A stretch of 64,000 nt of DNA. Origin: Planctomycetota bacterium (GTDB lineage Bacteria > Planctomycetota > B15-G4). Where the stretch lies: the NCBI GenBank assembly GCA_021604805.1, contig BQJR01000001.1, positions 720,925 to 784,924 on the forward strand. Reading direction: 5' to 3'. Within the stretch, counting starts at the first letter, position 1. Each line of letters starts with the position of its first letter. The notes beneath the pieces are model-generated. The model was not told the origin of the DNA, searched no databases, and saw nothing but the letters and a program-made list of their open reading frames with translations. The translations under genes and the position numbers were made by a program. This document shows, one piece after another, positions 31,092 to 46,145 of the stretch.

Positions 31092-33404
31092 ATGTCGAGC
31101 ATCTCCTCGCGCCGCCGCTTGGCGTGCGTGCTCGCGCTCACCGCGCTCGCCTCGCTGGGCGGACTCGGCATCGCTTGCGGCGACGACGCACCCGCCGAGC
31201 CCGACACGACGGCGCGCCTCGCCGTGCTGCAGCGCGACCTGAGCCTGGAACGTGATCCCAGCGCCCCCGCCCCGCAGCCCTTCTCCTATCACTGGGACGC
31301 CGCCAGCCTGCGCACCAACTGGCTCCCCGGCGAAGGCACCCTGCGCAAGCTCCAGACGCAGGAGCTGCAAGTGCGCGGCACGCCGAACGCCGAGCTCGTG
31401 AGCCCGGCCAGCGCCACGCTCGACGCCGAGATCCATCACCACCTCGTGGTGCATCTGCGCAGTGCGCGCGCGCTCGACGTCACGGTGTACTGGCGTGCGC
31501 GCGAAGCGCAGCCCTTTGCCGAGAGCCGTCGCACCGTGGCCGAAACACTGCCCGCGAGCGAGGCCACGCAGATCTGGTCGCTGCCGCTGGCGAACCTGCG
31601 CGGCTGGAAGCACCAGCGCGAAGGCGGACCGGGTGCCGGCTGGACCAAGGGCGCCGACGCCGCCGAGGGCCTGCAAGCCCTGAGGCTCGTGTTCGTCGAC
31701 GCGGAGAACCCCGGCAGCACCCCGGCCGACGTGTTCATCGAGTCGATCGCGCTCACGTCGAGCTTCGATCGCGAATCCGACCAGGAACTGAGCCTCGCGC
31801 GCATGGGTCGCGAGCACGTGTTCCAGCGCGGCGTCGCGTTGTCGGTGCCCGACGCCGCCAGCCTCAGCTTGATGCCCGGGCCGCAGGACCGGCTGCGCTT
31901 CTCACTCGCCGTGGCGGGCGCGCGCGAGCCCGTCACCCTGAGTTTGCGCGACGAGGCCGGCAAGCTCGCGCCGCAGTCGTGGGAGTTGCAGCCGCGTGCC
32001 CCGTGGCTGAACGTGGCGCTCGAGTTGGGCGCGCTGGCCGGCGAGAACGCACGACTGCACTTCGAGACGAGCGGCGCGCAGAGCGGCGGCGCAGTGATGA
32101 TCGGTCAACTGATGCACCTCGCGCCGCCGACCACGCCACGACCGAACGTGGTGCTCTACGTGGAAGACACCTTGCGCGCGGACCGGCTGCCGAGCTACGG
32201 CTACGCGCTGCCCACCGCGCCGCACTTGAGTCGCATGGCCGACGCGGGTGTGGTCTTCGAGGACCTCTTCGCGGCCTCGAACTGGACGCGACCGTCGACG
32301 ACCTCCTTGCTGACCGCGCTCGACCCCGTCACGCACGGCAATCACGACGACTACGACCGCATCGCCGAGAGCCTCGTGACCTTGCCCGAGTTGCTGGCCG
32401 AGGCCGGCTACGTGACCGCGTCGCTCGTGACGAACTACCACGCCGGCGCGTGGTCCGGGCTCGACCAAGGTTTCGACGTGGTGCACGAGCCGCCGGCCGG
32501 CGGCGCGTCCACGCTGAACTCCACGCTCACCTCCGGTGTCGTCGGCGACGCGCTCGAAGCGCTGCTCGAGGAACACCAGGGCGAGCAACTGTTCGTGTAC
32601 GCGCACAGCCTCGATCCGCACCAGCCCTACACGCCCACCGCCGAAGACCTGCGCGTCTTCCACGATCCGCCCGAAGGCGCCGCCGGCACGCACAAGCAGG
32701 CCAGCCCTTCGGTGCGCTACGACGCCGAGATCCTGTTCAACGACCACCAACTCGCGCGCCTCGACGCGCAACTCGAGAGCCACGGGCTGCTCGAGGACAC
32801 GCTCTTCGTGTTCACCTCCGACCACGGCGAGGGTTTCATGGAGCACGGTCAGCGTTCACACCGCACCGACATGTTCCAAGAGGAGTTGCACGTGCCGTGG
32901 ATCCTGCGTTGGCCGGCCCAGCTCCGCGCGGGTCAACGCGTGAGCGCGCCCGCAGGTCACGTGGACATCGCCCCCACGCTCGCCGGCTTGCTCGGGCTGG
33001 ACGCGCCGTCGAACTGGCGCGGCCGGGATCTCTCGCAGCTTGCGCGCAGCCCGAACGCGCGCGTCGATGCCACGCCGCTGATGAGCTTCACCACCTACGG
33101 CACGCGCCCCGAGGGTGGCCACAAGCAAGCGCTCGCCGTGCGCCAGGGCGCCTACAAACTCACCGCCTGGGTGAATGAGCGCGACGAGATCCTGCCGCGC
33201 GCGCTCTACCGCCTCGACCTCGATCCGGGTGAGCACACGAATCTGCTCGAAGCGTCCGAGCACGCCGAGCAGCGTGATCGCATGCTCAGCTGGGCCCGCG
33301 ACGACCTCGCCCGCGGACGTGCCAGCGTGGAAGCGCGTCCGGCCAATCACATGGACCCGGCCATGCGCGCCTGGCTGCAGGAGATGGGTTACCTAGGCAA
33401 ATGA
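31092..33404 (+). CDS. Sulfatase-fold lipoprotein 5, T-R-P-S-T variant (770 aa)
   Basis: Lipobox GLGIAC; VVLYVEDTLRADRL, ASNWTRPSTTSLLT, YAHSLDPHQPY, FTSDHGE and C-terminal LQEMGY. It has no CxxC tail. Confidence 0.85.
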   Translation: MSSISSRRRLACVLALTALASLGGLGIACGDDAPAEPDTTARLAVLQRDLSLERDPSAPAPQPFSYHWDAASLRTNWLPGEGTLRKLQTQELQVRGTPNAELVSPASATLDAEIHHHLVVHLRSARALDVTVYWRAREAQPFAESRRTVAETLPASEATQIWSLPLANLRGWKHQREGGPGAGWTKGADAAEGLQALRLVFVDAENPGSTPADVFIESIALTSSFDRESDQELSLARMGREHVFQRGVALSVPDAASLSLMPGPQDRLRFSLAVAGAREPVTLSLRDEAGKLAPQSWELQPRAPWLNVALELGALAGENARLHFETSGAQSGGAVMIGQLMHLAPPTTPRPNVVLYVEDTLRADRLPSYGYALPTAPHLSRMADAGVVFEDLFAASNWTRPSTTSLLTALDPVTHGNHDDYDRIAESLVTLPELLAEAGYVTASLVTNYHAGAWSGLDQGFDVVHEPPAGGASTLNSTLTSGVVGDALEALLEEHQGEQLFVYAHSLDPHQPYTPTAEDLRVFHDPPEGAAGTHKQASPSVRYDAEILFNDHQLARLDAQLESHGLLEDTLFVFTSDHGEGFMEHGQRSHRTDMFQEELHVPWILRWPAQLRAGQRVSAPAGHVDIAPTLAGLLGLDAPSNWRGRDLSQLARSPNARVDATPLMSFTTYGTRPEGGHKQALAVRQGAYKLTAWVNERDEILPRALYRLDLDPGEHTNLLEASEHAEQRDRMLSWARDDLARGRASVEARPANHMDPAMRAWLQEMGYLGK

Positions 33405-33468
33405 ACCGCGGGCAAGTGAGCCGCGGGCACCAGTAAGCCGCGCCCTCTTACACGCGGCCTTCGCGCAG

Positions 33469-34221
33469 TCAGTTGCGGGCGTGGGCCTCGCGCGTCTTGG
33501 CGTCTTTCAGGAAGGCGTACCAGGAACCCAGCGCGCAGACGACGAGGCCGCGCCAACCGTCGAGCACACCGCGCTGCAGCAAGTACATGCGCGCGAAGCG
33601 GAACGGCGGCCCGAGCAGCAGCTTGCCGAAACCCACGCGCTTGCCGGCGGCCACGCGCCGCTCAGCGATCGTGGTCGTGTAGGCGTTGATCTTGCTGAGG
33701 TGCTCGGCCAGGTCCACATAGGGTTCGTGCAGCAGGCGTCCGGCGAGGCGACCGGTGCTGCCGGTGACTTCCATGTGGTCGTGGGGTTCCACGCCACCCG
33801 AACGCCCGGCGCCGCGACGCAACAGGCGCAGGCGCCATTCGGGGCTCCAGCCGCAGTGGTCGATCCAGCCGCCGAGGTAGCGGCTGCGGCGGTTGAGTTC
33901 GAAGCCGGCGTGGCCTTGGTCGGCGCCGGCGAGCACGCGGGCCAGCGCGGCGGCCAACTCGCCGTCGAGCCATTCGTCGGCGTCGAGGCAGAGCACCCAG
34001 TCTTGGGTCGCGTGGTCGAGCGCGATCTGGCGCTGCCCCACGAAGCCCGTCCAAGGGTGCTCGACGATCTCGGCGCCAGCCTTGCGGGCCAGTTCCAAGG
34101 TGGCGTCGGTGCTGCCCGAGTCGATCACCAGCAGCTGGTCGGCGAGCTCCGCCACCGAGGCGAGGCAGCGCGGCAGGTCGCGCTCCTCGTTGCAGGTCAA
34201 GATCGTGACGCTGAGTCCCAT
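33469..34221 (-). CDS. Glycosyltransferase family 2 (WaaE/KdtX-like beta-glucosyltransferase, 250 aa)
   Basis: LSVTILTCNEE, VIDSGSTDAT, DWVLCLDADE and LLH...HLSKINAYTT. Confidence 0.92.
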   Translation of the reverse strand: MGLSVTILTCNEERDLPRCLASVAELADQLLVIDSGSTDATLELARKAGAEIVEHPWTGFVGQRQIALDHATQDWVLCLDADEWLDGELAAALARVLAGADQGHAGFELNRRSRYLGGWIDHCGWSPEWRLRLLRRGAGRSGGVEPHDHMEVTGSTGRLAGRLLHEPYVDLAEHLSKINAYTTTIAERRVAAGKRVGFGKLLLGPPFRFARMYLLQRGVLDGWRGLVVCALGSWYAFLKDAKTREAHARN

Positions 34222-34289
34222 CGGCGCATGATCCAGCGCGCCGGGTCGCAGATGCAAGCGCTGCGCGTCGGGAGGCGGCCGCATGGTCT

Positions 34290-34317
34290 TTGCCGCCAGA
34301 CGACTCGACGGTAGGAT
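34290..34317 (+). promoter_or_regulatory. Putative promoter of the GlmL-like operon, TTGCCG-N16-TAGGAT
   Basis: Lies in the divergent gap between GT2 and the operon; SD GGGAG at 34338-34342 precedes ATG 34349. Confidence 0.45.
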
Positions 34318-34348
34318 GGGCGATCTGCGTGCCCCCCGGGAGAATCCG

Positions 34349-35038
34349 ATGAGCGATGCCGGCCTCGAGGCCCTTGCGGCCCCTGAGTCGGTGTCTTCAG
34401 CCGGAGGGTCGGCGTCTCTAGCCGGAGGGTCGGTGTCTCCAGCCGGAGGCGGAGGCCGTCGGAACTCGACGCTCCCCGCCGCCCCGAGTCGCGCCCAGAA
34501 CGAGGCCGCCCAGGCTCCTGCGGCCGCCGAACAAACCCCCAGTCCGTCGGGCCACGCCAGCTCAGTCGAGAACGAGCCCGTTCAGGAGCTGCGCTGGACC
34601 GTCCACCCCGCCGCCCAGTCCCCGGCGCGCGCCGCCTTGGTCGGCGGCCTGATCCTCGGGGTGAGCCTGCTCGCCGCGCAACTCTCAGCCGCACCGCAGT
34701 TCGGCGTCCTCGCGCTGCTCTTCCTGGCGTTCAGCCTGCGCGCCTTCTTCCTTCCGCGGCACTATGCGTTCGACGCCGCCGGCGCCCGCGAGTCCGGCCC
34801 CCTGGGCGCCACCCGCCGCGTGGCCTGGCCCGACGTGAAACAGGTGCGCGCCGTGCGCTTCGGCGTGTGGCTGGGCGAGCGTCACAACAGCTCGCGCATG
34901 CTGCCGGCCCACGGGCTCTTCGTGCGCACGAGCGGCAATCGCAGCGAGGTGCTGGCCGCAGCGCAACGGGCGGCACCGGAGGCCAGCGCCCCGGCCGCGC
35001 CCCAGGACTCCGCGAACCGCCAGGACCCCGCGAACTGA
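34349..35038 (+). CDS. Operon gene 1: two-TM membrane protein with a PH-like cytoplasmic C-terminal domain (229 aa)
   Basis: Low-complexity N-terminus, then LRWTVHPA, two TM helices and LP..YAFD..G......VAW.DV..VR, a pattern typical of bacterial PH-like domains. The stop overlaps the next ATG (TGATG). Confidence 0.65.
   Translation: MSDAGLEALAAPESVSSAGGSASLAGGSVSPAGGGGRRNSTLPAAPSRAQNEAAQAPAAAEQTPSPSGHASSVENEPVQELRWTVHPAAQSPARAALVGGLILGVSLLAAQLSAAPQFGVLALLFLAFSLRAFFLPRHYAFDAAGARESGPLGATRRVAWPDVKQVRAVRFGVWLGERHNSSRMLPAHGLFVRTSGNRSEVLAAAQRAAPEASAPAAPQDSANRQDPAN
34387..34449 (+). repeat. In-frame 21-bp tandem repeat, 3 copies
   Basis: gtcggtgtcttcagccggagg / gtcggcgtctctagccggagg / gtcggtgtctccagccggagg, encoding SVSSAGG-SASLAGG-SVSPAGG. 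Confidence 0.85.
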
Positions 35039-35466
35039 TGGGCAAGCCGGCCGTCACCGAAAGCCTGGAGCCGCACGAGCAAGAGCTGCTCGACGAGGTC
35101 GCCGAGGGCGTGGTGCGACGCCGGCTCTCCACGCCCGCGATGATGTTCCTGGAGATGAGCACGCCGCTCAACATGCTCGGCAGCTCCACGCTGCACATGG
35201 CCTCGCCGTTGTGGCGCGCGGTCGTGCCCGTGTCGCGCATCGACCAAGTGGCGAAGCTGCTCGAGAAGCGCATCGCCATCCCCGCGCTGATCCAAGCCAT
35301 CGACGACGCGGAACACGAGCGTCGCCGGGCAGCGAAGTCCAAGTCGGACGCGCCGCCGACCAACGCCGCACCGCTGACCCCCACCGCGCTGGCGACCGGG
35401 GCCACCCCACCGACCGATCCCGATTCACCGTCCGCCCCTCACGCGCCTGACGAGACGAGCTCTTGA
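35038..35466 (+). CDS. Operon gene 2: small helical conserved hypothetical protein (142 aa)
   Basis: Core LLDEVAEGVVRRRLSTPAMMFLEMSTPLNMLGS...LLEKR. Coupled on both sides (TGATG, TTGA). Confidence 0.7.
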   Translation: MGKPAVTESLEPHEQELLDEVAEGVVRRRLSTPAMMFLEMSTPLNMLGSSTLHMASPLWRAVVPVSRIDQVAKLLEKRIAIPALIQAIDDAEHERRRAAKSKSDAPPTNAAPLTPTALATGATPPTDPDSPSAPHAPDETSS

Positions 35467-37271
35467 GCGAAACGATCCGATCCATCCTCGCCACCGATTG
35501 TGGAAGCACCACGACCAAGGCGATCCTCATCGAGCTCACCAGCGACGGCTATCGCCTCAAGGTGCGCGGCGAAGCACCCACCACCGTGGAGAAGCCTTTC
35601 GACGACGTGACCGTGGGCGTGATCAACGCCGTCACCGAAGTGCAGGAGCTCGCGGGCCGCACGATCGTCGGCGAGGACGGCCGCATCATCACGCCGCAGA
35701 CCGACGAAGCCGGCGTGGACCTCTACCTCTCCACGAGCAGCGCGGGCGGCGGCTTGCAGATGCTCGTGGCCGGCGTGGTGCGCAGCATGACGGCCGAGTC
35801 GGCCGAACGCGCGGCGCTCGGCGCGGGCGCCATCGTGATGGACGTGTTGTGCAGCAACGACCAGCGTCAGCCGCACGAGCAGATCACGCGCATCCGACAT
35901 CTGCGGCCCGACATGATCCTGCTCAGCGGTGGCGTCGACGGCGGCACCACGAGTCACGTGGCCGAGCTCGCCGAGTTGATCTCCGCCGCCGACCCGAAGC
36001 CGCGTCTCGGCGCGGGCTACGAGCTGCCGGTGGTGTTCGCCGGCAACGTGGAAGCGCGCGGCGCCGTCAACGACGCGCTCGAGGAGAAGACGGCGCTGTC
36101 CGTCGTGGACAACCTGCGCCCCACGCTCGACGAAGAGAACCTCGACCCCGCGCGCGACCAGATCCACGACCTGTTCATGGAACACGTCATGGCGCAGGCG
36201 CCGGGTTACGACAAGCTCAAGAGCTGGACGTCGGCGCCCGTGATGCCCACGCCCGGCGCCGTGGGCGCGATCATCACCACCGTGGCCGAGCAGCGGAAGT
36301 TGCAAGTGATCGGCGTGGACATCGGCGGCGCGACCACCGACGTGTTCTCGGTCTTCCAGCACAAGTTCAACCGCACCGTGTCCGCCAACCTCGGCATGAG
36401 TTACTCGATCTCGAACGTGATGGCCACGGCCGGGCTCGACAACGTGCTGCGCTGGGTGCCCTTCGACATCGACGAGAGCGAGCTGCGCAACCGCATCAAG
36501 AACAAGATGGTGCGCCCCACCACCATCCCGAGCCTGGTGCGCGACCTCCAAGTGGAACAAGCGCTGGCGCGCGAGGCGCTGCGTCTCTCACTGATCCAAC
36601 ACAAGGAGTTCGCCACGGAGCTCAAGGGCGTGCGCAAGTCGCGCGACATCTCCGAGGCCTTCGACCAGAGCGGCTCGGGCAACACACTCGTGAACATGAT
36701 GACGTGTGACTTGGTGGTCGGCAGCGGCGGCGTGCTGAGTCACGCGCCACGCCGCGTGCAGTCGGCGCTCATGCTCATCGACAGTTTCGAGCCCATGGGC
36801 GTGACCAAGCTGGCCGTGGACTCGATCTTCATGATGCCGCAGCTGGGCGTGCTCTCCACGGTGCACGAAGCCGCGGCCACCGAAGTGTTCGAGCGCGACT
36901 GCTTGGTTCCGCTGGGCACCTGCATCGCGCCCGTCGGCAAGACCAAGGGCGGCAAGCCGCTCGCGAAGATCACACTCGAGTTGCCCGACGGCAAGGTCGA
37001 GCGCACGCTCGCCGTGGGCGACCTCGACCTGATCAAGTTGCCCACCGGCAGCAGCGCGCGCTGCACGATCGAACCCGCCAAGGGTGTGGACGTGGGCGCG
37101 GGACCGGGGCAAGTGCTCAACACCGAGATCGAAGGCGGCGAGGCGGGCATCTTCCTCGACGGCCGCGGTCGCCCCGTGCAAGTGCCTGCCGACGCGCAGC
37201 AACGCGTCGCCGCCATCGAAACCTGGATCGAGAACCTCGATCTCTACCCGCGTGAGGGAGCCCACTCGTGA
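35463..37271 (+). CDS. Operon gene 3: glutamate mutase L (GlmL/MutL)-like ASKHA-fold ATPase (602 aa)
   Basis: Phosphate-1 ILATDCGSTTTKA, SSAGGGL, LLSGGVDGG, VMPTPGAV, phosphate-2 VIGVDIGGATTDVFS, NLGMSYS and GSGGVLSHAP match the GlmL/MutL pattern. Confidence 0.85.
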   Translation: MSETIRSILATDCGSTTTKAILIELTSDGYRLKVRGEAPTTVEKPFDDVTVGVINAVTEVQELAGRTIVGEDGRIITPQTDEAGVDLYLSTSSAGGGLQMLVAGVVRSMTAESAERAALGAGAIVMDVLCSNDQRQPHEQITRIRHLRPDMILLSGGVDGGTTSHVAELAELISAADPKPRLGAGYELPVVFAGNVEARGAVNDALEEKTALSVVDNLRPTLDEENLDPARDQIHDLFMEHVMAQAPGYDKLKSWTSAPVMPTPGAVGAIITTVAEQRKLQVIGVDIGGATTDVFSVFQHKFNRTVSANLGMSYSISNVMATAGLDNVLRWVPFDIDESELRNRIKNKMVRPTTIPSLVRDLQVEQALAREALRLSLIQHKEFATELKGVRKSRDISEAFDQSGSGNTLVNMMTCDLVVGSGGVLSHAPRRVQSALMLIDSFEPMGVTKLAVDSIFMMPQLGVLSTVHEAAATEVFERDCLVPLGTCIAPVGKTKGGKPLAKITLELPDGKVERTLAVGDLDLIKLPTGSSARCTIEPAKGVDVGAGPGQVLNTEIEGGEAGIFLDGRGRPVQVPADAQQRVAAIETWIENLDLYPREGAHS

Positions 37272-38392
37272 GTCATGCCTACACCCCAGGCCTGAAGGTC
37301 TCCGACGCCGCCGAGTTCGTGCGCGCGCGCAGCCTGCCGATCCCCGGCGAGGTGCTCGTGAAGCAGGGCGACAGCGTGGAGCCCGACACTGTCGTGGCGC
37401 GCGCCTTGTTGCCCGGCAACGTGGTCACGGCGAACTTTGCGCGTCAACTCGGCGTGGCCGCCGCCGACCTCGGCGAGCTGCTGCTCGTGAAGCCCGGCGA
37501 GACCGTGAAGGAAGGTCAGCCGATCGCGCAGAGCAAGGGCATCTTCGGCATGTTCAAGCAGGCCGTGAACGCGCCCACCACCGGCGAGTTCGAATCGGTG
37601 TCGGCCGTGTCCGGTCAGGCGATCTTCCGCGAAGCGCCGATCCCCGTGGAAGTGCGCGCTTACGTGGGCGGCAAGGTGACCAGCGTCACCGACACGTTCG
37701 GGGTCGACGTGACGGCGCGCGGCATCATGGTGCAAGGCATCTTCGGCATCGGCCCCGAGGTGGCCGGGCCGATCACCTTGGCCGGTCCCGACCCGGCCAA
37801 GCGCCTCGAGCCCGCCGACATCAAGGCCGAACACAAGGGCAGCGTGCTCGTGGGCGGCTCCTTCGCGAGCTTGGCCACGTTGCGCGCGTGCATCGAGAAG
37901 GGTGTCACGGCGCTGGTCGTCGGGGGCATCGACGCGGCCGACCTCAAAGAACTGCTCGGCTTCGACCTGGGCGTGGCGATCACGGGCAACGAAACCGTGG
38001 GGCTCACGCTGGTCGTCACCGAGGGCTTCGGCGAGCTGGCCATGGCCGGCAAGACGCACCGACTGCTGAGCAACGCCGTGGGCCAAGTGGCGTCGGTGAG
38101 CGGCGCCACACAGATCCGCGCGGGCGTGATGCGCCCCGAGGTGCTCGTGCCGCGCGAGATCGAAGCGATCGAACAGACCGAAGTCGACACGGGCTTCATG
38201 CACGAAGGCAGCGTGGTGCGCATCATCCGCGACCCACATTTCGGCTCGCTGGGTAAAGTCACGGCGCTACCGCCCGAGCCGGCAGCCTTGGAGACCGAGG
38301 CCAAGGTGCGTATTCTCACGGTCGCCCTGGCTGATGGCACTCCGGTCACGCTCCCGCGGGCCAACGTCGAACTCGTGGACGAGAGCCTGTGA
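37268..38392 (+). CDS. Operon gene 4: soluble protein with barrel-sandwich hybrid (RnfC/NqrA-N or biotinyl-lipoyl-like) repeats and a C-terminal KOW/SH3-like domain (374 aa)
   Basis: VLVKQGDSVEPDTVVA and LLVKPGETVKEGQPIA...VNAPTTG; C-terminal GSVVRIIRDPHFGSLGKVT...VTLPRANVELV. Confidence 0.7.
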   Translation: MSHAYTPGLKVSDAAEFVRARSLPIPGEVLVKQGDSVEPDTVVARALLPGNVVTANFARQLGVAAADLGELLLVKPGETVKEGQPIAQSKGIFGMFKQAVNAPTTGEFESVSAVSGQAIFREAPIPVEVRAYVGGKVTSVTDTFGVDVTARGIMVQGIFGIGPEVAGPITLAGPDPAKRLEPADIKAEHKGSVLVGGSFASLATLRACIEKGVTALVVGGIDAADLKELLGFDLGVAITGNETVGLTLVVTEGFGELAMAGKTHRLLSNAVGQVASVSGATQIRAGVMRPEVLVPREIEAIEQTEVDTGFMHEGSVVRIIRDPHFGSLGKVTALPPEPAALETEAKVRILTVALADGTPVTLPRANVELVDESL

Positions 38393-39330
38393 TCCAACCA
38401 CTGCTCGCGCTGCAAGACGCGGTGACTCCCTGGTGGGTCGACCTCAACCTCTGGCTCAGCGGCATGGGTCGCGGCACCGATGCCGACGGCTCAGTGCTCG
38501 CGCCCGGCATCGGCACTCCCGGTGGCCTCGACGATTGGATCGACACGGGCAAGCTGCCCACGCTCATCGCGATCCTGATCTACGCCTTCTTGATGTTGCG
38601 CAGCCAGGCCAAGGCCAAGGCCGGCGCCGAGATCCCGATCCGTCGCATCGCCGGCCTGGATGCGCTCGACGAAGCCATCGGGCGCTCCACCGAGATGGGC
38701 CGCCCGGTGCTCTACGTGCCCGGCATCGACGAGATCAAAGAGATCCAAACGATCTACTCGATGATGATCCTGCGGCACGTGGCGCGCAAAACCGCTGAGT
38801 ACGGCACGCCGCTCATCGTGCCCGTGAAAGACTCGGTCGTGATGACCTTCGCCGAGGAAGCCTGCAAGCAAGGTTGCCTCGACGCCGGCCGCCCCGACGC
38901 GTTCATCGCCGACAACGTGCGCTACCTGTCGAACGAGCAGTTCGCCTACTGCGCGGGCGTGGCCGGCATCATGAACCGCGAGAAGCCGGCCGCGAACATC
39001 ATGCTCGGCATGTTCTTCGCCGAGTCGCTGATCCTCGCAGAGACCGGCTACGCGAGCGGCGCGATCCAGGTGGCGGGCACAGCCAAGCAGCACCAGCTGC
39101 CCTTCTTCGTGGCCGCCTGCGACTACACGATCATCGGCGAGGAGTACTTCGCCGTCACCGCGTACCTCACGCGTGAGCCGGGCTTGCTCGGCACGATCCG
39201 CGCCGCCGACATCATCAAGGTGATCGTGATCATCCTGTTCGTGCTCGGCGTGATCCTGGCCACGGCCACGGGCAACGGCACCGAAACCTCACCTTCTCTC
39301 TTCGACGTCTACGGACGTCTCTTCGGCTGA
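38389..39330 (+). CDS. Operon gene 5: DUF6754-like membrane protein (313 aa)
   Basis: TM helix, then IRRIAGLDALDEAIGRSTEMGRPVLYVPG...FAESLILAETG...QLPFFVAACDYTIIGEEYFA..AYL, then a C-terminal TM. Matches my recollection of DUF6754. Confidence 0.75.
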   Translation: MIQPLLALQDAVTPWWVDLNLWLSGMGRGTDADGSVLAPGIGTPGGLDDWIDTGKLPTLIAILIYAFLMLRSQAKAKAGAEIPIRRIAGLDALDEAIGRSTEMGRPVLYVPGIDEIKEIQTIYSMMILRHVARKTAEYGTPLIVPVKDSVVMTFAEEACKQGCLDAGRPDAFIADNVRYLSNEQFAYCAGVAGIMNREKPAANIMLGMFFAESLILAETGYASGAIQVAGTAKQHQLPFFVAACDYTIIGEEYFAVTAYLTREPGLLGTIRAADIIKVIVIILFVLGVILATATGNGTETSPSLFDVYGRLFG

Positions 39331-39337
39331 GTTCACG

Positions 39338-39985
39338 ATGAAACGCGAGATCCCCATCGCCCTCACCGTGATCTGCGGTCTGCTGATCACCTGGGCCTTC
39401 TTCAGCCCGTCGGAGCTGAGCCAAGCGGTCAACGTGGAGCTCACGGCCTGGGCGTCGATCTTCTTCGCCGTGGCCTTCCTGCTCGGCATCGGCAACTTGG
39501 TGCGCATCAGCCTGAAGCAGATCAGTGCGCGCCATCCCGACTGGCCCTACAAGGCGCTGTTGATGCTGATGCTCTTCGGCTACCTCAGCATCGGCCTGCT
39601 CGAGATCCACGGCGTGATCGAGAGCGAGTACGGCGACAAGGCTTACCAAGACTGGATCTACGAGCGGATCTTCAAACCGCTGCAGTCCACCATGTTCGCG
39701 CTGCTCGCTTTCTACATCGCGTCGGCAGCCTTCCGCGCCTTCCGCGCGCGCTCGATGGAAGCCACGCTGCTGCTCACTGCTGGCGCGCTCGTGATGCTCG
39801 GCCAGGTGCCGCTGCCGATCGCGCCGCCTGAAGTCGGCGCCTTCTTCGCGCGCGTGCAGGGCTTCCTGATGGCCTACGTGAACGCCGCGGGCCAGAGCGC
39901 CATCATCATGGGTGCCGCGCTCGGCACCCTCGCCACGGGCCTGCGCATCGTGCTCGGTCTCGAACGCAGCTACCTTTCGGAGTAA
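39338..39985 (+). CDS. Operon gene 6: integral membrane protein (about 5-6 TM, 215 aa)
   Basis: Hydrophobic throughout; conserved-looking PLQSTMFALLAFYIASAAFRAFRARS.EA.LL and C-terminal LRIVLGLER. Confidence 0.75.
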   Translation: MKREIPIALTVICGLLITWAFFSPSELSQAVNVELTAWASIFFAVAFLLGIGNLVRISLKQISARHPDWPYKALLMLMLFGYLSIGLLEIHGVIESEYGDKAYQDWIYERIFKPLQSTMFALLAFYIASAAFRAFRARSMEATLLLTAGALVMLGQVPLPIAPPEVGAFFARVQGFLMAYVNAAGQSAIIMGAALGTLATGLRIVLGLERSYLSE

Positions 39986-39989
39986 GGCC

Positions 39990-40865
39990 GTGGCGCAAGC
40001 AACAGATCTCGATCGACGCTGGATCTTCCTGGCCATGGGTGTGCTCGTGGTCGGGTTGTTCGCGTCCGGCGTGTCCTCACCGATGCCGGTGAGCAGGTAC
40101 GTCAGCGATTACTACGACACCATCGAGGCGCTGCCCGAGGGTTCCGTGGTGATGCTCTCGGCCGACTTCGACCCGGCCTCCGCCGCCGAACTCTTCCCCA
40201 CCTACCAAGCCACGATCCATCACCTGATGCGACGCGGCATCCGCGTGGTCAACGTGGCCACCTGGCCGGCGGCGCCGCCCTACACGCGCAAGGCCTTCGA
40301 CGCCATCGCCCCCGCCTACGGCCGCGAGTACGGCACCGACTGGGTCGAGCTGGGCTTCAAGCCGGGCGACGACGTGGCCATGGCTCAGATCGGCCAGTCG
40401 ATCCGCACGACCTACCCGCGCGACGACCGCGACGGCACCGCCATCGACCAGCTCCCGCTGATGTCCGAGGTGGGCGACTCCTTCGAGGGCATCGAGCTGC
40501 TGCTCACGATGAGCGCCGGCTACCCCGGCATCCTCGAGTGGATCGCCCAAGCCGGCGGCCGCTACGACATGACGATGCTGGCGGCCACCACCGCCGTGCA
40601 GACGCCCGACCTCTTCGCGTACTACCCCACGCAACTCGCGGGCTTCTGCGGCGGCGCCACGGGGGCCACCCAGTACCTGCAGCTCGTGGCCAACTCAGCG
40701 GGCACGGCCACGATCATGGACCAAGCGCCGCTCGACGAGCTGCTCGCCGTGAAGGAGAAGAACCAGAAGCGCATGGTGATCCAGATGTGGGGTCACCTGT
40801 TGATCATCGCGCTGATCGTCCTCGGTAACGTGCTCTACTTCCGCGGTCGAAAGGCGGTGGCCTGA
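39990..40865 (+). CDS. Operon gene 7: TM-soluble alpha/beta domain-TM protein, probable DUF6754 paralog (291 aa)
   Basis: GTG 39990; DRRWIFLAM TM, central YDTIEALPEGSVVMLSADFDP...YGTDWVELGFKPG and C-terminal TM HLLIIALIVLGNVLYF. Confidence 0.72.
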   Translation: MAQATDLDRRWIFLAMGVLVVGLFASGVSSPMPVSRYVSDYYDTIEALPEGSVVMLSADFDPASAAELFPTYQATIHHLMRRGIRVVNVATWPAAPPYTRKAFDAIAPAYGREYGTDWVELGFKPGDDVAMAQIGQSIRTTYPRDDRDGTAIDQLPLMSEVGDSFEGIELLLTMSAGYPGILEWIAQAGGRYDMTMLAATTAVQTPDLFAYYPTQLAGFCGGATGATQYLQLVANSAGTATIMDQAPLDELLAVKEKNQKRMVIQMWGHLLIIALIVLGNVLYFRGRKAVA

Positions 40866-41764
40866 TGTCCTCGATGCTCGCGCTGCAAGACGCAGCCACA
40901 CCCTTCGTCAGCCTGGACCCCAATGGCCCGGTGGACATCATCGGCGCGTGGCTGATGTGCTTCCTCACGCTCTCGGTGTTCAGCTTCCTGTACAAGGACA
41001 ACCCCTTCTACAAGGTCGCTGAGCACGTGTTCGTGGGTGTGGGCACCGCGTACTTCGCGCTGCAGTACTACAAGGAAGGCATCCTCGAGCCCGTCCGCGA
41101 CCACATGTACGACATCGCCGAGGTGATGGGCGAACCGGGTGCGAGCTTCTCGCTCGGCGGCTACGACGCCGACCCCACGATCGCCTTCATCCTGCGCGCG
41201 GTCGCAGCGATCTTCGGCCTCATGTTGCTCACACGCCTGTTCTCGCCGAACTCCTGGGCGCCGCGCTGGCCGCTGGCCGTGATGGTCGGTGTGTACTCCG
41301 CGCTGAAGCTCACCGGCGAGACGCAGAGCAAGCTCGTGCTGCAGACCAAGGGTTTGATGAAGCCGCTCGTGCCCGAGAACGTGGGCGAGGTGGGCTGGTT
41401 CCCGGACGGCGTGGCCCTCGAGTCCACGCCGCTGTTCCTCACCATCGCGAACGCCATCGTGGTCATCGGCGTGATCTGCGCGTTGAGCCACTTCCTGTTC
41501 ACCTGGAAGCGCGGCCGCACGCTGGGCGCCGTGTCGCGCGTGGGCATCATCGTGCTGATGATCACCTTCGGCTCGATGTTCGGCTTCACGGTGCTGGGAC
41601 GCATCGCGCTGCTCATCGAACGCGTCAACGAGCTCTTCGACCTCTCGGAACCGGACTACGCCTTCGGCACTCCGTTCCTGTCGCCGCCGGTGATCCTCAC
41701 CGTGCTGATTGCTGGCACGCTCACGCTCTTCGCCTTGCAACGCAAGGAAGGCACCGACAGCTGA
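40865..41764 (+). CDS. Operon gene 8: integral membrane protein (about 6-7 TM, 299 aa)
   Basis: TGATG coupling; LTL.VFSFLYKDNPFYKVAEHVFVG...MITFGSMFGFTVLGRIALLIER. Confidence 0.75.
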   Translation: MSSMLALQDAATPFVSLDPNGPVDIIGAWLMCFLTLSVFSFLYKDNPFYKVAEHVFVGVGTAYFALQYYKEGILEPVRDHMYDIAEVMGEPGASFSLGGYDADPTIAFILRAVAAIFGLMLLTRLFSPNSWAPRWPLAVMVGVYSALKLTGETQSKLVLQTKGLMKPLVPENVGEVGWFPDGVALESTPLFLTIANAIVVIGVICALSHFLFTWKRGRTLGAVSRVGIIVLMITFGSMFGFTVLGRIALLIERVNELFDLSEPDYAFGTPFLSPPVILTVLIAGTLTLFALQRKEGTDS

Positions 41765-41837
41765 TCGCGCGCTGAACCGCGGGCTGTTCGACGAGCGCCT
41801 GCGCTGGCCGAAGGTTCATGCCGCAGAGCGTGAGCGC

Positions 41838-41873
41838 GTGAATCCGTGTGAATCCGCGGGCGCTGTGAATCAG
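41838..41873. repeat. Short direct repeats GTGAATCCG x2 plus GTGAATCAG between convergent operons
   Basis: Copies at 41838-41846, 41848-41856 and 41865-41873. Confidence 0.55.
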
Positions 41874-42697
41874 TGGGCGCTCGGGGGCGACGCGTCGGCC
41901 CAGAGTTCGCGGGCACTGTTCGCGGTCCAGGCCGTCACCCAACTCACCAGCGCGTCGCGGGCGGCGGGCACGCGCGCTGCGCCTTGCACACCATCGAGCG
42001 CGGCGCGTACGAGCGCGATCATCGGGCGCATGTCCATCAACCGCTCCACGGCCTTGCGCGGCTCGTCGCCCGTGATCTTGGAGAACACGGCCTGCGCCAT
42101 GTCGCGGGAGGCCATGGCGGCTCCGAAGGCGCGCATCGACATCTGGCTCTTGTGCGCGGCGACGGCTTGGGTCTTGGCCTTGCGCAGCGCCGTGACGTCG
42201 ATCTCGAACACGCCGGGCGCGGCGGGGAGCGCGTCCCAGGCGCCGTAGCCCCACCAATCGGCGGCCGGGTTCATCCACGCGGCGTCGGCGGCGGCGAGCA
42301 CGCCAGCCAGCAGGCTCGCGCGGTGCGTGGGGTGACGCTCCAAGGGCCAGGGCGCGAGCACGGCGTCGAAGGGACCGCTGTCGCTCACGAGCTCAGCGAG
42401 GCGCAGCGCAGCCGCCAGCGGATCGCCGCGCAGCTCGCTCGACGGCACGTCGAGGAACAGCGGCGCGTCGGTGCCGAGGATCTCGCAGCAGCGCAGCGAC
42501 TCCTCGCGACGCTGTTCGGGCGGCACCTGACCTTGCACGCCCGCGCTGCGCGCCAGGATCACGGGCAGAACACGGGCGCCGGCGCGCGTGAGACAGGCCA
42601 CGCTGCCGCCGGGCCCCAAGGCCTCGTCGTCGGAGTGCGGCGCGAGCAGCAGCACCCGCCGCCCGGCCGCGCTCTGACCGGGGTCCAAGGACTCCAC
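41870..42697 (-). CDS. PIG-L/LmbE family deacetylase (275 aa)
   Basis: VLLLAPHSDDEALGPGG, RREES..CCEILG, second motif HPTH and K..AVAAHKSQ. GTG 42697 is 4 nt after the upstream stop. Confidence 0.85.
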   Translation of the reverse strand: MESLDPGQSAAGRRVLLLAPHSDDEALGPGGSVACLTRAGARVLPVILARSAGVQGQVPPEQRREESLRCCEILGTDAPLFLDVPSSELRGDPLAAALRLAELVSDSGPFDAVLAPWPLERHPTHRASLLAGVLAAADAAWMNPAADWWGYGAWDALPAAPGVFEIDVTALRKAKTQAVAAHKSQMSMRAFGAAMASRDMAQAVFSKITGDEPRKAVERLMDMRPMIALVRAALDGVQGAARVPAARDALVSWVTAWTANSARELWADASPPSAH

Positions 42698-42701
42698 GAA
42701 C

Positions 42702-45700
42702 TCAGTTCCCCGACGTGGGCAGCGAGGTGGCGTCCACCGAAGGACCGGCGCTCGTGAGGTAGAGCCGCGAGCCGGCACCCAGACCGTCGGCGCTGAGCAG
42801 CGGCAGCACGATCGGATCGGGCTGCAGCACGGGGTTCGAGATGTTGCGCATCGGCACGAAGAAGGCCTCGGTGTCGGAGGCCACGCCGAGCTCGCCGGCT
42901 TCCATCCCGAACACGAAGGCCAGCGCTTCGGAGGCCTGCCCCGTGGGCGCGATGAAGTGGAAGCTCCCGCTTTGGACGCGCCCGAAAGGCATGCCCATCA
43001 TCTCTGCCGACGACGCGAGGTCGCGCTCGAACAGGAAGTTGTCGAGGTCCACCACGAAGGGGTGCTGCGTGGCGCCGAAGGGATCGGAGTCCCCGGTGCG
43101 CGCGTAGGCCAGCTTGCCTGAGAACGGGCTGGGCGTGAGGTCGCTCACCTGACTGCCGTCGGCGCCGCTGTAGGTCGCTTGGAAGCCCTGGTTCGGCGAC
43201 GTCTCACGGAAGCTGAAGACCTGCTGCGTGGCGGTCTCGTCTTGCGCGTCGGTGCTCGCGAACCACATCACGTTCGCTTGGGCGCCGCGGCCTCGCGTGA
43301 AGTGCATGCGCGAGGGTGTCTCGTACACCGGGACGAACTGCTCGTCGTCGAAGAACAAGTTGGGCAGGTTGGCGGAGTCGGTGAACTCGTCGCCGCTCAC
43401 GTCGATCAGTTGCAGCGTTTCGCGATCGAGCGCGATCAGGTTCGTGACCGGCGTGCCCGGTGGCAGCACGGTGTTGCCCGCCTTGATCGGACCGTTGCGC
43501 AGGATGTAGAGCAGCCTCTCGTCGTCGGACATCCAGCTCGCGATGGGCTGGAGCGTGCCCATCGTGTCGAACTCGCCGCCGCCGCCGCTGCGCGTGAGGT
43601 TCGTCATCAGGTCGGTGGTCCTGTCGTACATGAACAGGTCGGTGGCCGGGATGATCCCTGAGAACAGCGAGAGCGGGTCGAAGAGCGAGGTCTCGCCCAT
43701 GAAGTACACGATGCGATCTTCGTCGAGCCAGTGCAGTTGAAGGATCTCGTGATCGGCCTGGTAGGGCCCCGACTCGCGGAAGGTCGGTGTGGTGCCCACG
43801 ATGTCCTTGTAGATGCCGCTCACGTTGCCGTAGTCGAGCCCGTTCGTGCGCGCCGTGTGGAGCCAGTCGCGGCGCGCGCTCTGCAGATCGAGCAGCGCGA
43901 GTTGCGTGCCCTCGGGCGAGAACACCAGGCGACGCGAGCTGCCTGCGCCACCATTGGGCATGGGCGAGCGGATCTCGACCTTGGCCTCTCCGCTGCCGGT
44001 CGGCAGGCCGAAGCCCGTGACGTTCAGCAGCAAGCGACTCACGACACCCTGCTGGTTCACCGACACGGCGGCGATCACATAGAGGTCTTCGCGCTTGGCT
44101 TCGTTGCCGGCCGCGATGGCCAGCTGGTCGCCCTTGGGTGACTTGGCGAAGATCGGATCGAAGCGCCGGATCTCGAGCGCGTTGCCGATCTTGGGGAACT
44201 CATCGGTGATCCACGGGCGCGGCATGCTGGGTGGCGACTTGGTGGAGCCGGGCGGCACCAGCGCGACCTCGATCAGGTCGCGCACCAGCACGTCCTCGCG
44301 AGCGTAGGCGCTCTCGTACCCGATCACGAAGCCGTCGGACATGGAGGTCTCGCCACCGGTGCTCGTGGTGGCGAACTTGAAGCCCAGGCCCACGTAGGCC
44401 ACGTACTTCTCGGGATCGGTGTTGACGATCGCGAAGGACTGCGGGAGCAGGCGCCGCGAGCGCGTGAACTTGGAGCTGACGGTGGGATCGTTGGCCAGTT
44501 GGTAGGTGATCTCCCAGACCGGCGAGCCGCTCGCGGGCCAGTCGAGCCCATCGAGGCGAATCGCGAAGAGCCGGTCGGGATCGCTCGCGAAGGTCGGCGT
44601 GACGCCCGTGCTCACGTGCAGCGCCGCCAAGAAGGATCGGTTGTCGGGTGCCAGGGTGATGATCGGATCCCAAGCCAAGCCCTCGGAAGTCAACATCTCG
44701 GTGCCCTCGAGCAGCGAGAACTCGTGCGTGCGATGGTCGAGGACGGCGAAACCCTCGCCGCCCGTGGCCTCCACGCGGTAGCGCAGCAGGTCGAGCTCAC
44801 GCGTGACCAGCTGGGTGTCACCCTCGGCGCCGCCGCCTTCGACCTCCGGCTCCACGGGCTCCTCGAAGGTGAAAGCCGGGATCGTGACGCGCGGCACATC
44901 CATGTTGCGCGCGTCGAGGCCCACGCGGTCACGCGAGAAGGCGCCCGGCGTGGTGGCCATCGTGAAGTCGCCCAGCACGATGTTGCCAGCTTGGTGAGGG
45001 TAGGCCGAGGAACCCTCGGAGCCGTGCATCGCGCGCGTGAGCCCGGTGAAGCTCGTGGGCGTGAGGCCGGTGTAGCCCACGATCTCGATGTTGGGCGAGT
45101 TCGTCTCCACGCTGGTCTTGTTGCCCCACGGGTTGTCGGAACCGAACTGAACCAGCAGCTGACCCTCGGGCGGGAAGCCCGTGGTGTCCTCGACGAGCAA
45201 CTCCACCGTGTTGCCCGCGTTGATCGGATCGGACACGAGAGTGGACGGTCGCGCCAAGGGCAGCACGGGCCCCTCGATCCCAGTGGGCACGATCGGCACG
45301 AAGCGAATCCCTTCCGGGAAGACCTCGTTGGTCGTGCTGTCCGGCGGCTCGCCGCCGCCCAAGGGCGCGAAGGTGTTGAGCTGATCGATGCCGAGATCGC
45401 GGCTGCCCACGCCTTCCACCACGCGGTCGTCGAAGGGGGCTGTGGCGCGCACGAAGCTGAAAGCGGCGTTGTAGCGCGGCAGGCTGAGCGTGACGGCGAC
45501 ACCGTTGCTCAGCTTCACGTTCGGCAGCGAGTCGACGTCGCGCACGATCGCCTGCAAGAAGGCGGTGCCGCTGGTGAGGCTCGGCGGGATCACAGTGAAG
45601 AAGCTCGCCGTGCCGTTCGCGCCGAGGAACAAACCCGGCGGGAAGATCACCTTGAAGGGCGGCATGGTGTAGAGCGGCGGCGGCTGCTGATCGAGCGGGA

Positions 45701-45977
45701 GGCCGCTCATCTGCGACGACAAGAGCATCGCCCACGGCACGCTGTCGTTGGACGGGCCCTCACTCAGGTAGCTGAGCTCGAGCGCCATCGAGGTGCCGCC
45801 CGTGACGGTGAGCACGCCGCTGTTGTCGAAGGGGTCCCCGACGGCGGGCGCCTGCCCCGCGGCATCGGAGATCGTGAGCCGCGGGAAATCGCCCGGCATC
45901 TGCGCCTGAGCGACGAGCGGGGTGGCCAAGCTCGTCGAACTGACGAGCACCAACAGGATCGATACGAACGTCCGCAT
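42702..45977 (-). CDS. Large secreted beta-rich hypothetical protein (1091 aa)
   Basis: Signal peptide MRTFVSILLVLVSSTSLA...AQA; codon usage like neighbouring genes; TolB/WD-like strands (TLAPDNRSF, KSPKGDQLA, VFSPEGTQLA). Confidence 0.8.
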   Translation of the reverse strand: MRTFVSILLVLVSSTSLATPLVAQAQMPGDFPRLTISDAAGQAPAVGDPFDNSGVLTVTGGTSMALELSYLSEGPSNDSVPWAMLLSSQMSGLPLDQQPPPLYTMPPFKVIFPPGLFLGANGTASFFTVIPPSLTSGTAFLQAIVRDVDSLPNVKLSNGVAVTLSLPRYNAAFSFVRATAPFDDRVVEGVGSRDLGIDQLNTFAPLGGGEPPDSTTNEVFPEGIRFVPIVPTGIEGPVLPLARPSTLVSDPINAGNTVELLVEDTTGFPPEGQLLVQFGSDNPWGNKTSVETNSPNIEIVGYTGLTPTSFTGLTRAMHGSEGSSAYPHQAGNIVLGDFTMATTPGAFSRDRVGLDARNMDVPRVTIPAFTFEEPVEPEVEGGGAEGDTQLVTRELDLLRYRVEATGGEGFAVLDHRTHEFSLLEGTEMLTSEGLAWDPIITLAPDNRSFLAALHVSTGVTPTFASDPDRLFAIRLDGLDWPASGSPVWEITYQLANDPTVSSKFTRSRRLLPQSFAIVNTDPEKYVAYVGLGFKFATTSTGGETSMSDGFVIGYESAYAREDVLVRDLIEVALVPPGSTKSPPSMPRPWITDEFPKIGNALEIRRFDPIFAKSPKGDQLAIAAGNEAKREDLYVIAAVSVNQQGVVSRLLLNVTGFGLPTGSGEAKVEIRSPMPNGGAGSSRRLVFSPEGTQLALLDLQSARRDWLHTARTNGLDYGNVSGIYKDIVGTTPTFRESGPYQADHEILQLHWLDEDRIVYFMGETSLFDPLSLFSGIIPATDLFMYDRTTDLMTNLTRSGGGGEFDTMGTLQPIASWMSDDERLLYILRNGPIKAGNTVLPPGTPVTNLIALDRETLQLIDVSGDEFTDSANLPNLFFDDEQFVPVYETPSRMHFTRGRGAQANVMWFASTDAQDETATQQVFSFRETSPNQGFQATYSGADGSQVSDLTPSPFSGKLAYARTGDSDPFGATQHPFVVDLDNFLFERDLASSAEMMGMPFGRVQSGSFHFIAPTGQASEALAFVFGMEAGELGVASDTEAFFVPMRNISNPVLQPDPIVLPLLSADGLGAGSRLYLTSAGPSVDATSLPTSGN

Positions 45978-46145
45978 GCGCAGCCTCGGGGTTGCGGCCT
46001 GAAAATCATCGCGGGGCTTCGGGGGCCCCTGCTGCGGGACGACGTGAAGCCACAGCAAACGACACTCAGAAGTCTACCAGCCGAGCGCGCCCCAGTCGGG
46101 GCTCTGCAGCAGCGAAGCGAAGTCCGCCCCGAGCCGGAGGGTCGA

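Follow-up and report, generated by a model that had tools for sequence, protein, structure and literature searches.

What task might a MutL-family ATPase have in an operon that holds four membrane proteins and no glutamate mutase? This question is raised by eight genes (g1 to g8, numbered 5′ to 3′) that all lie on the + strand at positions 34349-41764 of a 64,000-nt stretch of a Planctomycetota genome (contig BQJR01000001.1; hereafter the window, to whose full length all positions refer). They encode a variable membrane protein (g1), a small helical protein (g2), an ATPase of the actin/Hsp70/sugar-kinase (ASKHA) fold (g3), its soluble partner (g4) and a cassette of four membrane proteins (g5-g8), the first of which belongs to DUF6754, a family without assigned function (Table 1). 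Our comparative analysis indicates that the eight-gene set is a real, conserved and co-inherited system, which probably represents a type of membrane machine not described before. The explanation we tentatively favour, at somewhat less than even confidence, is that the cluster encodes one conserved multi-subunit inner-membrane machine in which the ASKHA ATPase powers work done across this membrane.

The breadth of the system is apparent from its membrane cassette. A search with g5 returned at least 8000 protein clusters at 90% identity, many of them 50-88% identical to g5, and a scan with one genome per species found DUF6754 to be encoded by at least 585 species, and by none of 14 model organisms. 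Loci were compared by tblastn of the eight window proteins, and the counts of loci given here refer to the best 80 loci, drawn from these at least 585 species. They come from about 15 phyla, including Planctomycetota, Eisenbacteria, Fermentibacterota, Ignavibacteria, Calditrichota, Zixibacteria, Cloacimonadota, Poribacteria, WOR-3, Stahlbacteria, Marinimicrobia, Sumerlaeota, Edwardsbacteria, Rifleibacteria, a metagenome-assembled genome (MAG) of the Sandaracinaceae and others. An earlier note on this DNA, made from the sequence alone, had placed similar gene sets in poorly characterised phyla, and this was correct. The cassette is highly syntenic: 71 of the 80 loci have all of g5-g8, and in 65 these genes are contiguous and their order is unchanged. 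Of the nine loci that lack a full set, eight are cut by a contig end. Both g3 and g4 occur in 31 loci, in 26 of them directly upstream of the cassette.

The ATPase pair is also found where it does not adjoin the cassette. Profile searches covered 12 genomes in which g3 and g4 had not been found within 8 kb of the cassette, and a g3 orthologue scoring above 1000 bits was present elsewhere in the genome in 10 of the 12. The g4 profile identified an orthologue elsewhere in 11 of the same 12 genomes, and also in the window's own genome. Among 301 genomes of the Planctomycetota, DUF6754 was detected in 79 and g4 in 77, with both in 75, DUF6754 only in four, g4 only in two and neither in 220 (Fisher test, p = 3e-63); the four genomes with DUF6754 only are fragmented MAGs. 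Carriers in this phylum are confined to certain families. The module was present in nine of nine sampled genomes of the window's own family and in none of nine from two sister families, and its presence in every genome of the former suggests vertical inheritance there. The earlier note had held that a failure of the homologues to co-occur or stay syntenic would speak against a module; the order of the cassette, the co-occurrence and the recovery of non-adjacent g3 and g4 instead speak for one.

The best conserved component is the ATPase itself. g3 matches the MutL family PF13941 over the entire profile (421 bits, profile positions 1-450 of 450, above the gathering score), with a co-hit to PF01968, and its median identity to orthologues across phyla is 63%, the highest of the module. 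Its phosphate-1, phosphate-2 and adenosine motifs (ATDCGSTTTK, GVDIGGATTD and GSGGVLSHAP, respectively) are invariant among 26 orthologues, whose alignment has a mean column identity of 67%. These intact nucleotide-binding motifs suggest that g3 is a competent ATPase and might perform ATP-driven work. The orthologues are of constant length (600-631 aa) and carry a conserved C-terminal extension of about 120 aa, in which P538, D543, D566, R568 and W588 are invariant.

The earlier note had described g3 as an orphan GlmL-type ATPase. The orphan status and the Pfam family hold, as PF06368 (Met_asp_mut_E, glutamate mutase) scored above its cutoff in none of 16 carrier genomes, the window's own genome included, and a mutase that consistently accompanies the module was thus not found. 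The term GlmL-type is overstated, since g3 misses the equivalog cutoffs by a wide margin, with 217.4 bits against NF040745 for GlmL (cutoff 475) and 210.8 bits against NF040744 for Or-4 (cutoff 600); against TIGR01319 it scored 149 bits (cutoff 204). With GlmL/MutL and Or-4, g3 shares the family PF13941 and the ASKHA fold with a hydantoinase-A-like core, and the alignment to GlmL and Or-4 spans g3 residues 8-480. GlmL is a single-domain protein of about 460 aa that lacks the C-terminal extension of g3. In contrast to GlmL and Or-4, g3 has an obligate 374-aa partner, g4, to which it is sometimes fused, and it co-occurs with a four-protein membrane cassette, with no B12 mutase nearby. Identification of g3 as GlmL or Or-4 was rejected on the missed cutoffs, the wrong length and the lack of glutamate mutase in the 16 carrier genomes. 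Judging from family and model names, the public naming of g3-type proteins after glutamate mutase is likely misleading.

The partner protein g4 is built from a barrel-sandwich hybrid, a second beta domain, a small alpha/beta domain and a KOW barrel, in this order. Its Pfam matches in the window (RnfC_N, Biotin_lipoyl and KOW) are weak, and among 30 orthologues Biotin_lipoyl was matched in 22, RnfC_N in 18, KOW in 11 and NQRA_N in nine. The orthologues vary in length only between 371 and 377 aa and have a median identity of 49% to the window protein, and an exhaustive profile search placed 1188 representatives in the family at E <= 1e-30. The alpha/beta domain contains three invariant, Gly-rich stretches (LGVAITGxE, TEGFG and SGATQIRAGVxRPE), which in the AlphaFold2 model (predicted local distance difference test score, pLDDT, 87) sit in loops of partly low confidence and are therefore probably mobile. 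No conserved lipoyl or biotinyl lysine is present at the barrel-sandwich hairpin in the orthologue alignment. A Foldseek search with the model gave domain-level matches only, to the KOW domain of NusG/Spt5 and the biotinyl domain of pyruvate carboxylase, and no whole-protein match.

Given its first domain, we considered g4 as an NqrA- or RnfC-like subunit. RnfC and NqrA resemble g4 in having an N-terminal barrel-sandwich hybrid and in being soluble subunits of membrane complexes, whereas the module of g4 is without Rnf/Nqr membrane subunits, flavin mononucleotide (FMN) or Fe-S domains and conserved Cys. NqrA and RnfC were absent from the 50 best Foldseek matches of the g4 model, and with KOW and biotinyl-domain matches only this candidate was rejected.

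Natural g3-g4 fusions exist within the g4 family. For example, a 995-aa protein (P0142) is 57% identical to the window g3 over 598 aa, the C-terminal extension included, and continues with a full g4. Together with the conserved 4-nt start/stop overlaps between the two genes, these fusions point to a physical link of g3 and g4. Separately, Cloacimonadota have, in addition to the canonical split pair, a g3-g4 fusion paralogue (965-993 aa; L096, 10292-13189; L097, 11843-14824, - strand) that has diverged, with identities of about 37-41% to g3 and 26-31% to g4, and that no DUF6754 cassette adjoins. Its neighbours show no consistent partner, being a GT4 glycosyltransferase gene in L097 and FGE-sulfatase and TsaD genes in the other genome.

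In the membrane cassette, g5 is the best conserved protein, with a median identity to the window protein of 54% compared with 33-38% for g6-g8. It matches DUF6754 with 356 bits (profile positions 4-251 of 257, above the gathering score), so that both Pfam assignments made in the earlier note, MutL for g3 and DUF6754 for g5, were reproduced. The AlphaFold2 model of g5 (pLDDT 86) shows a parallel alpha/beta domain of five or six strands between a transmembrane (TM) helix and a second, C-terminal TM helix; a 19-residue hydropathy scan flags the C-terminal helix only, and the N-terminal membrane helix corresponds to residues 53-77 of the model. The invariant residues G112, T121, G207, E212, T231 and G250-E251-E252 map to the C-ends of strands and the starts of the following helices, and E218 and D245 are also invariant. 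Alignment and model together thus suggest conservation along the C-terminal edge of the sheet, where folds of this kind commonly have the crevice for a ligand or partner. Compared with the PDB, the model had no fold match, and the best hits were generic Rossmann, TIM or SIS folds (E > 0.009, TM < 0.35). In some g5 paralogues and orthologues, the first TM helix (TM1) is preceded by an N-terminus that resembles a signal and by a weakly FN3-like domain of 100-150 aa, and the stretch following TM1 is K/R-rich. On these grounds the N-terminus of g5 is predicted to be outside and the very conserved alpha/beta domain to be cytoplasmic.

The remaining cassette proteins complete this arrangement. g6 always follows g5 and has no Pfam family among 31 orthologues, and neither g7 nor g8 belongs to a Pfam family. 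In g7, a DRR motif ahead of TM1 and K/R residues after TM2 suggest that both termini are inside and that the alpha/beta domain is periplasmic, which would mirror the topology of g5, and the cassette would accordingly place one conserved domain on each side of the membrane. By hydropathy, g1 and g7 each have two TM helices and g6 and g8 about five. In the orthologue alignments, no subunit has a conserved Cys/His cluster. An origin of the cassette by A-B-A′-B′ duplication was rejected, as hhalign gave a probability of 2% for g5 against g7 and 0.2% for g6 against g8, with no profile similarity.

A further property of the system is that one ATPase pair can be followed by several cassettes. A single g3-g4 pair precedes two tandem cassettes in three loci (L022, L027 and L083) and three cassettes in one locus each of Ignavibacteria (L007) and Zixibacteria (L013), and in the Planctomycetota many genomes have two or three DUF6754 genes and one g4. 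In a FastTree phylogeny of DUF6754, whose support values were not inspected, cassettes 1-3 of L007 and L013 group with the corresponding cassettes of other loci and not with each other, and the cassettes of one locus fall in different deep clades common to several phyla. This grouping suggests that the cassette types are ancient paralogues.

These observations can be combined in a working model of the machine. The g3-g4 pair, which co-occurs with the four-protein cassette and is usually joined by g2, would dock on the cytoplasmic alpha/beta domain of g5, where the invariant acidic residues are predicted to line the C-terminal edge of the parallel sheet, and it would probably make this contact through the Arg-bearing loops of g4, which are invariant and flexible. 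The effects of g3 binding and hydrolysing ATP would then pass by way of the g5 TM helices and of the polytopic g6 and g8 until they reach the g7 domain in the periplasm. The machine could in this way either carry a substrate over the inner membrane or perform periplasmic mechanical work (mechanotransmission), and the up to three diverged cassettes behind one g3-g4 pair would be specificity modules with a common motor. That this is the first primary-active membrane machine with an ASKHA motor, g3-g4(-g2), in place of a P-loop, P-type or rotary ATPase, acting on DUF6754 and with interchangeable cassettes, is possible, although we hold this fuller claim with real doubt.

Several points weigh against this model. 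To our knowledge, no ASKHA ATPase powers membrane transport, and the known relatives of g3, GlmL and Or-4, are thought to be enzyme reactivases and not motors. The contact of g3-g4 with the membrane cassette is inferred, the modelled g5 domain has a generic Rossmann- or SIS-like fold that would suit an enzyme or ligand sensor just as well, and g6 and g8 bear no resemblance to any transporter family. In addition, the operon coupling is not universal, as a Poribacteria genome carries g3, g4 and g5-g8 at three separate places. For the ATP-driven transporter or translocation device proposed in the earlier note, the conserved gene set and the invariant nucleotide motifs therefore stand, whereas the drive and the transport remain inferred.

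The system falls outside every described kind of membrane machine with which we compared it. Searches of the eight proteins against Pfam, NCBIfam and PADLOC yielded nothing beyond the MutL and DUF6754 assignments, and no P-loop ATPase, Fe-S or flavin family was found in them with Pfam and NCBIfam. In profile searches of the PDB, g3 and g5 had no match and the best hit of g4 had E = 0.18; g4-g8 have no PDB sequence match. Literature searches for DUF6754, PF13941 and PF20539 retrieved no paper, broader searches returned irrelevant papers only, and no paper on the system was found. A match to a characterised complex, which the earlier note had named as a reason to abandon its proposal, thus did not emerge from Pfam, NCBIfam, PADLOC, PDB profiles, Foldseek or the literature. 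Four specific candidates were rejected. An Rnf or Na+-NQR complex is contradicted by the match of PF02508 to only one of the 31 g6 orthologues (E = 0.066) and by the lack of FMN, Fe-S/flavin domains and conserved Cys. A biotin-dependent Na+-pumping decarboxylase would require the conserved biotinyl Lys that is missing from g4, and no carboxyltransferase or OadB family was found. ATP-binding cassette (ABC), P-type and rotary (F/V-type) ATPase transporters were dismissed as none of the eight proteins belongs to such an ATPase family. A known anti-phage defence system was dismissed with none of the eight proteins recognised by PADLOC and with the module carried by all nine sampled genomes of the window's family.

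Two known systems nevertheless offer analogies. In type VII ABC systems (MacB, LolCDE and FtsEX), an ATPase in the cytoplasm works, by way of TM helices, on a periplasmic domain that lies between two TM helices, as the domain of g7 is predicted to do. In energy-coupling factor (ECF) transporters, one energising module is common to several membrane modules, much as g3-g4 may be to its cassettes. Both have a P-loop ATPase in place of the ASKHA ATPase and no subunit with a sequence or profile relation to the module, so the likeness is one of analogy only.

The main rival to a membrane machine, which we consider unlikely, is a membrane-anchored enzyme with its own reactivase. Here g5, perhaps with g6-g8, would be a cofactor-bearing catalytic unit, and g3-g4 would be a GlmL/DdrAB-like chaperone, split and ATP-dependent, that opens the unit so that it is activated or a damaged cofactor is exchanged. 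In PF13941, those members that carry an annotation all adjoin B12 mutases, enzymes with a small Rossmann-like cofactor domain, and g5 has a parallel alpha/beta domain with invariant residues at its strand C-ends, the usual ligand site. The extreme conservation of the module also resembles that of a core enzyme. Moreover, the diol/glycerol dehydratase reactivase DdrAB and EutA combine an actin-fold ATPase with a second polypeptide, a mobile alpha/beta domain and a Rossmann-like target, and in g4 the alpha/beta domain, whose invariant loops are probably mobile, is reminiscent of the domains that swivel in reactivases. However, there is no sequence or fold match to DdrAB or EutA, and the presumed target, g5, is membrane-anchored and has neither the B12 motif DxHxxG, nor another cofactor motif, nor an invariant His. 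The searches detected no family linked to redox chemistry or cofactors, and conserved substrate-pathway genes are missing from the surroundings. Furthermore, g3 is the most conserved component of the module, and its median identity, well above the 33-54% of g5-g8, would be unusual for an accessory chaperone. The service of up to three diverged cassettes by one g3-g4 pair also argues against this explanation, which leaves the periplasmic domain of g7 without a role.

A second alternative concerns the substrate and not the mechanism, and can be combined with a membrane machine. Clustering of all neighbouring open reading frames (ORFs) of the loci revealed a recurrent context, in which gcvT-gcvH-gcvPA-gcvPB lie directly upstream on the same strand in 14-16 loci (Eisenbacteria, Fermentibacterota and several other lineages) and a lipoate-protein ligase of the LplA/LipB family lies directly downstream of the module in 17. 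In 10 loci the ligase gene is followed by a TonB-dependent receptor with a CarboxypepD_reg N-terminal domain (L004, L006, L008, L010, L021, L022, L024, L026, L027 and L033; at about 11-14.9 kb in most). This embedding in glycine-cleavage and lipoylation operons, in some phyla, is the only hint to the substrate. The machine might therefore serve lipoyl-protein or glycine-cleavage metabolism, through import of lipoate, octanoate or glycine or through handling of products such as CO2/HCO3- and NH4+, and g4 does begin with a lipoyl/biotinyl-like barrel-sandwich domain. We nonetheless judge this to be distinctly improbable. The context is not found in the window, in the complete genome of a close relative of the window genome (L100), or in loci of Planctomycetota, Marinimicrobia, Sumerlaeota and Poribacteria, and the loci that have it may do so by common descent. 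Within the Planctomycetota, the lipoyl synthase LipA (TIGR00510) was detected in every genome tested, 35 carriers and 30 non-carriers, which indicates that carriers are not lipoate auxotrophs; lipoate import for auxotrophs is hence unsupported. The presence of gcvP is uninformative for a glycine-cleavage link, as it is found in 288 of the 301 genomes, and the lack of a conserved lipoyl/biotinyl lysine in g4 also counts against the idea. In light of this context, the self-contained complex of the earlier note is sustained by the lack of mutase, B12 and redox genes, but is qualified by the operon embedding in some phyla and by the occurrence of up to three cassettes per pair.

It is far less probable that the module is a membrane-attached cytoskeleton or scaffold, in which g3 would form polymers that the membrane proteins tether, so as to organise the envelope or aid division. 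Scaffolding is the role of the known membrane-linked ASKHA proteins (FtsA, MreB and PilM), g3 has the actin/Hsp70 fold, and the restriction of carriers to certain families in the Planctomycetota would be compatible with such a role. However, the closest relatives of g3 are hydantoinase/GlmL-type enzymes, as its PF01968 co-hit shows, and not the polymerising actin branch, and the number of cassettes and the partner g4 would be left unexplained. Lastly, chance adjacency of two or more unrelated units, for which one could cite that roughly half of the loci, and Poribacteria, have g3-g4 apart from g5-g8, is effectively refuted by the phyletic co-occurrence, with the 26 adjacent loci in many phyla and the conserved start/stop overlaps pointing the same way.

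The ORFs of the operon are tightly packed (Table 1).

Table 1. Genes, junctions and promoter-like sequence of the cluster, with positions in the window.
Feature	Position	Strand	Description
Promoter-like sequence	34290..34317	+	TTGCCG-N16-TAGGAT; 8/12 consensus positions matched; unverified
g1	34349..35038	+	Variable membrane protein; low-complexity N-terminus, two TM helices, PH-like C-terminal part
g1/g2 junction	35038	+	TGATG, 1-nt overlap; read from sequence
g2	35038..35466	+	Small soluble helical protein, conserved accessory subunit
g2/g3 junction	35463-35466	+	TTGA overlap; read from sequence
g3	35463..37271	+	ASKHA ATPase, MutL family, 'long' subfamily; 602 aa
g3/g4 junction	37268-37271	+	GTGA overlap; read from sequence
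g4	37268..38392	+	Soluble g3 partner, 374 aa, four domains
g4/g5 junction	38389-38392	+	GTGA overlap; read from sequence
g5	38389..39330	+	DUF6754; PF20539
g5/g6 junction		+	7-nt gap, g6 from 39338; read from sequence
g6	39338..39985	+	Polytopic membrane protein, ~5 TM helices; motif LAFxIASAAFRAFR invariant
g6/g7 junction		+	4-nt gap, g7 GTG start at 39990; read from sequence
g7	39990..40865	+	Two TM helices around ~230-aa periplasmic alpha/beta domain (predicted)
g7/g8 junction	40865	+	TGATG; read from sequence
g8	40865..41764	+	Polytopic, ~5 TM helices; conserved motifs SFLYKDNPFYKFAEH and FGAxFGYTVMxRxSLLIGR

All eight same-strand genes and the junctions given in the earlier note were confirmed in the sequence, and in orthologous loci the median gaps at g2/g3, g3/g4, g5/g6, g6/g7 and g7/g8 are likewise -4 to 9 nt. 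The promoter-like sequence given there is present; however, it was not called by a scan of 33300-42900, which reported no promoter-like (sigma-70-like) site, and the promoter/terminator scan found no convincing terminator within the cluster. The G+C content of the window is about 70%. A Shine-Dalgarno-like GGGAG lies 7 nt ahead of the ATG of g1, and this spacing supports the start of g1 at 34349.

g1 is the least conserved member, with homologues in nine of the 80 loci by tblastn and in 19 by clustering, and the core of the system is therefore seven genes preceded by a variable first gene. Its match to bPH_6 is below threshold (17.8 bits, cutoff 22), and its two hydrophobic segments fall within residues 95-136. 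The first ~95 residues (34349-34630) are of low complexity, rich in Ala, Gly, Ser and Pro, and missing in the 117-175-aa orthologues of other phyla, so either the protein was extended in this lineage or its actual start is farther downstream. g2 has no Pfam or NCBIfam family; its orthologues adjoin g3 in 16-28 loci (16 of 80 by tblastn), overlap g3 by 4 nt in most loci and lie between g4 and g5 in Marinimicrobia.

The operon is flanked by a divergent GT2 glycosyltransferase gene, a convergent PIG-L deacetylase gene, a gene for an 1118-aa protein without family and a sulfatase gene, and no mutase, B12 or redox gene is among them. The GT2 gene lies upstream of the operon (33469-34284, - strand) and likewise in L100 (5013-5822). 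In other loci, a GT2 gene is found between g4 and g5 (L081) and a GT4 gene adjoins the g3-g4 fusion paralogue (L097, as above); these glycosyltransferases near the module may be coincidence. The 1118-aa protein is encoded just downstream and convergent with the operon (42702-46058, - strand), has no Pfam family and an N-terminus that resembles a signal peptide, and has a 1074-aa counterpart, also without Pfam family, at the same position in L100 (14238-17462). The sulfatase-family gene is located upstream of the operon (31092-33404).

Few ways are known in which ATP is used at membranes, namely ABC, P-type, rotary and AAA+/SecA-type motors. If our preferred explanation of the cluster as an ASKHA-driven inner-membrane machine is true, a widespread machine powered by an actin-fold ATPase would be an additional way to spend ATP at membranes. 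The module is concentrated in phyla that are known almost solely from metagenomes, such as the Eisenbacteria, Fermentibacterota, Cloacimonadota, Marinimicrobia, Zixibacteria, WOR-3, Poribacteria and parts of the Planctomycetota, and its function is probably relevant to their basic physiology.

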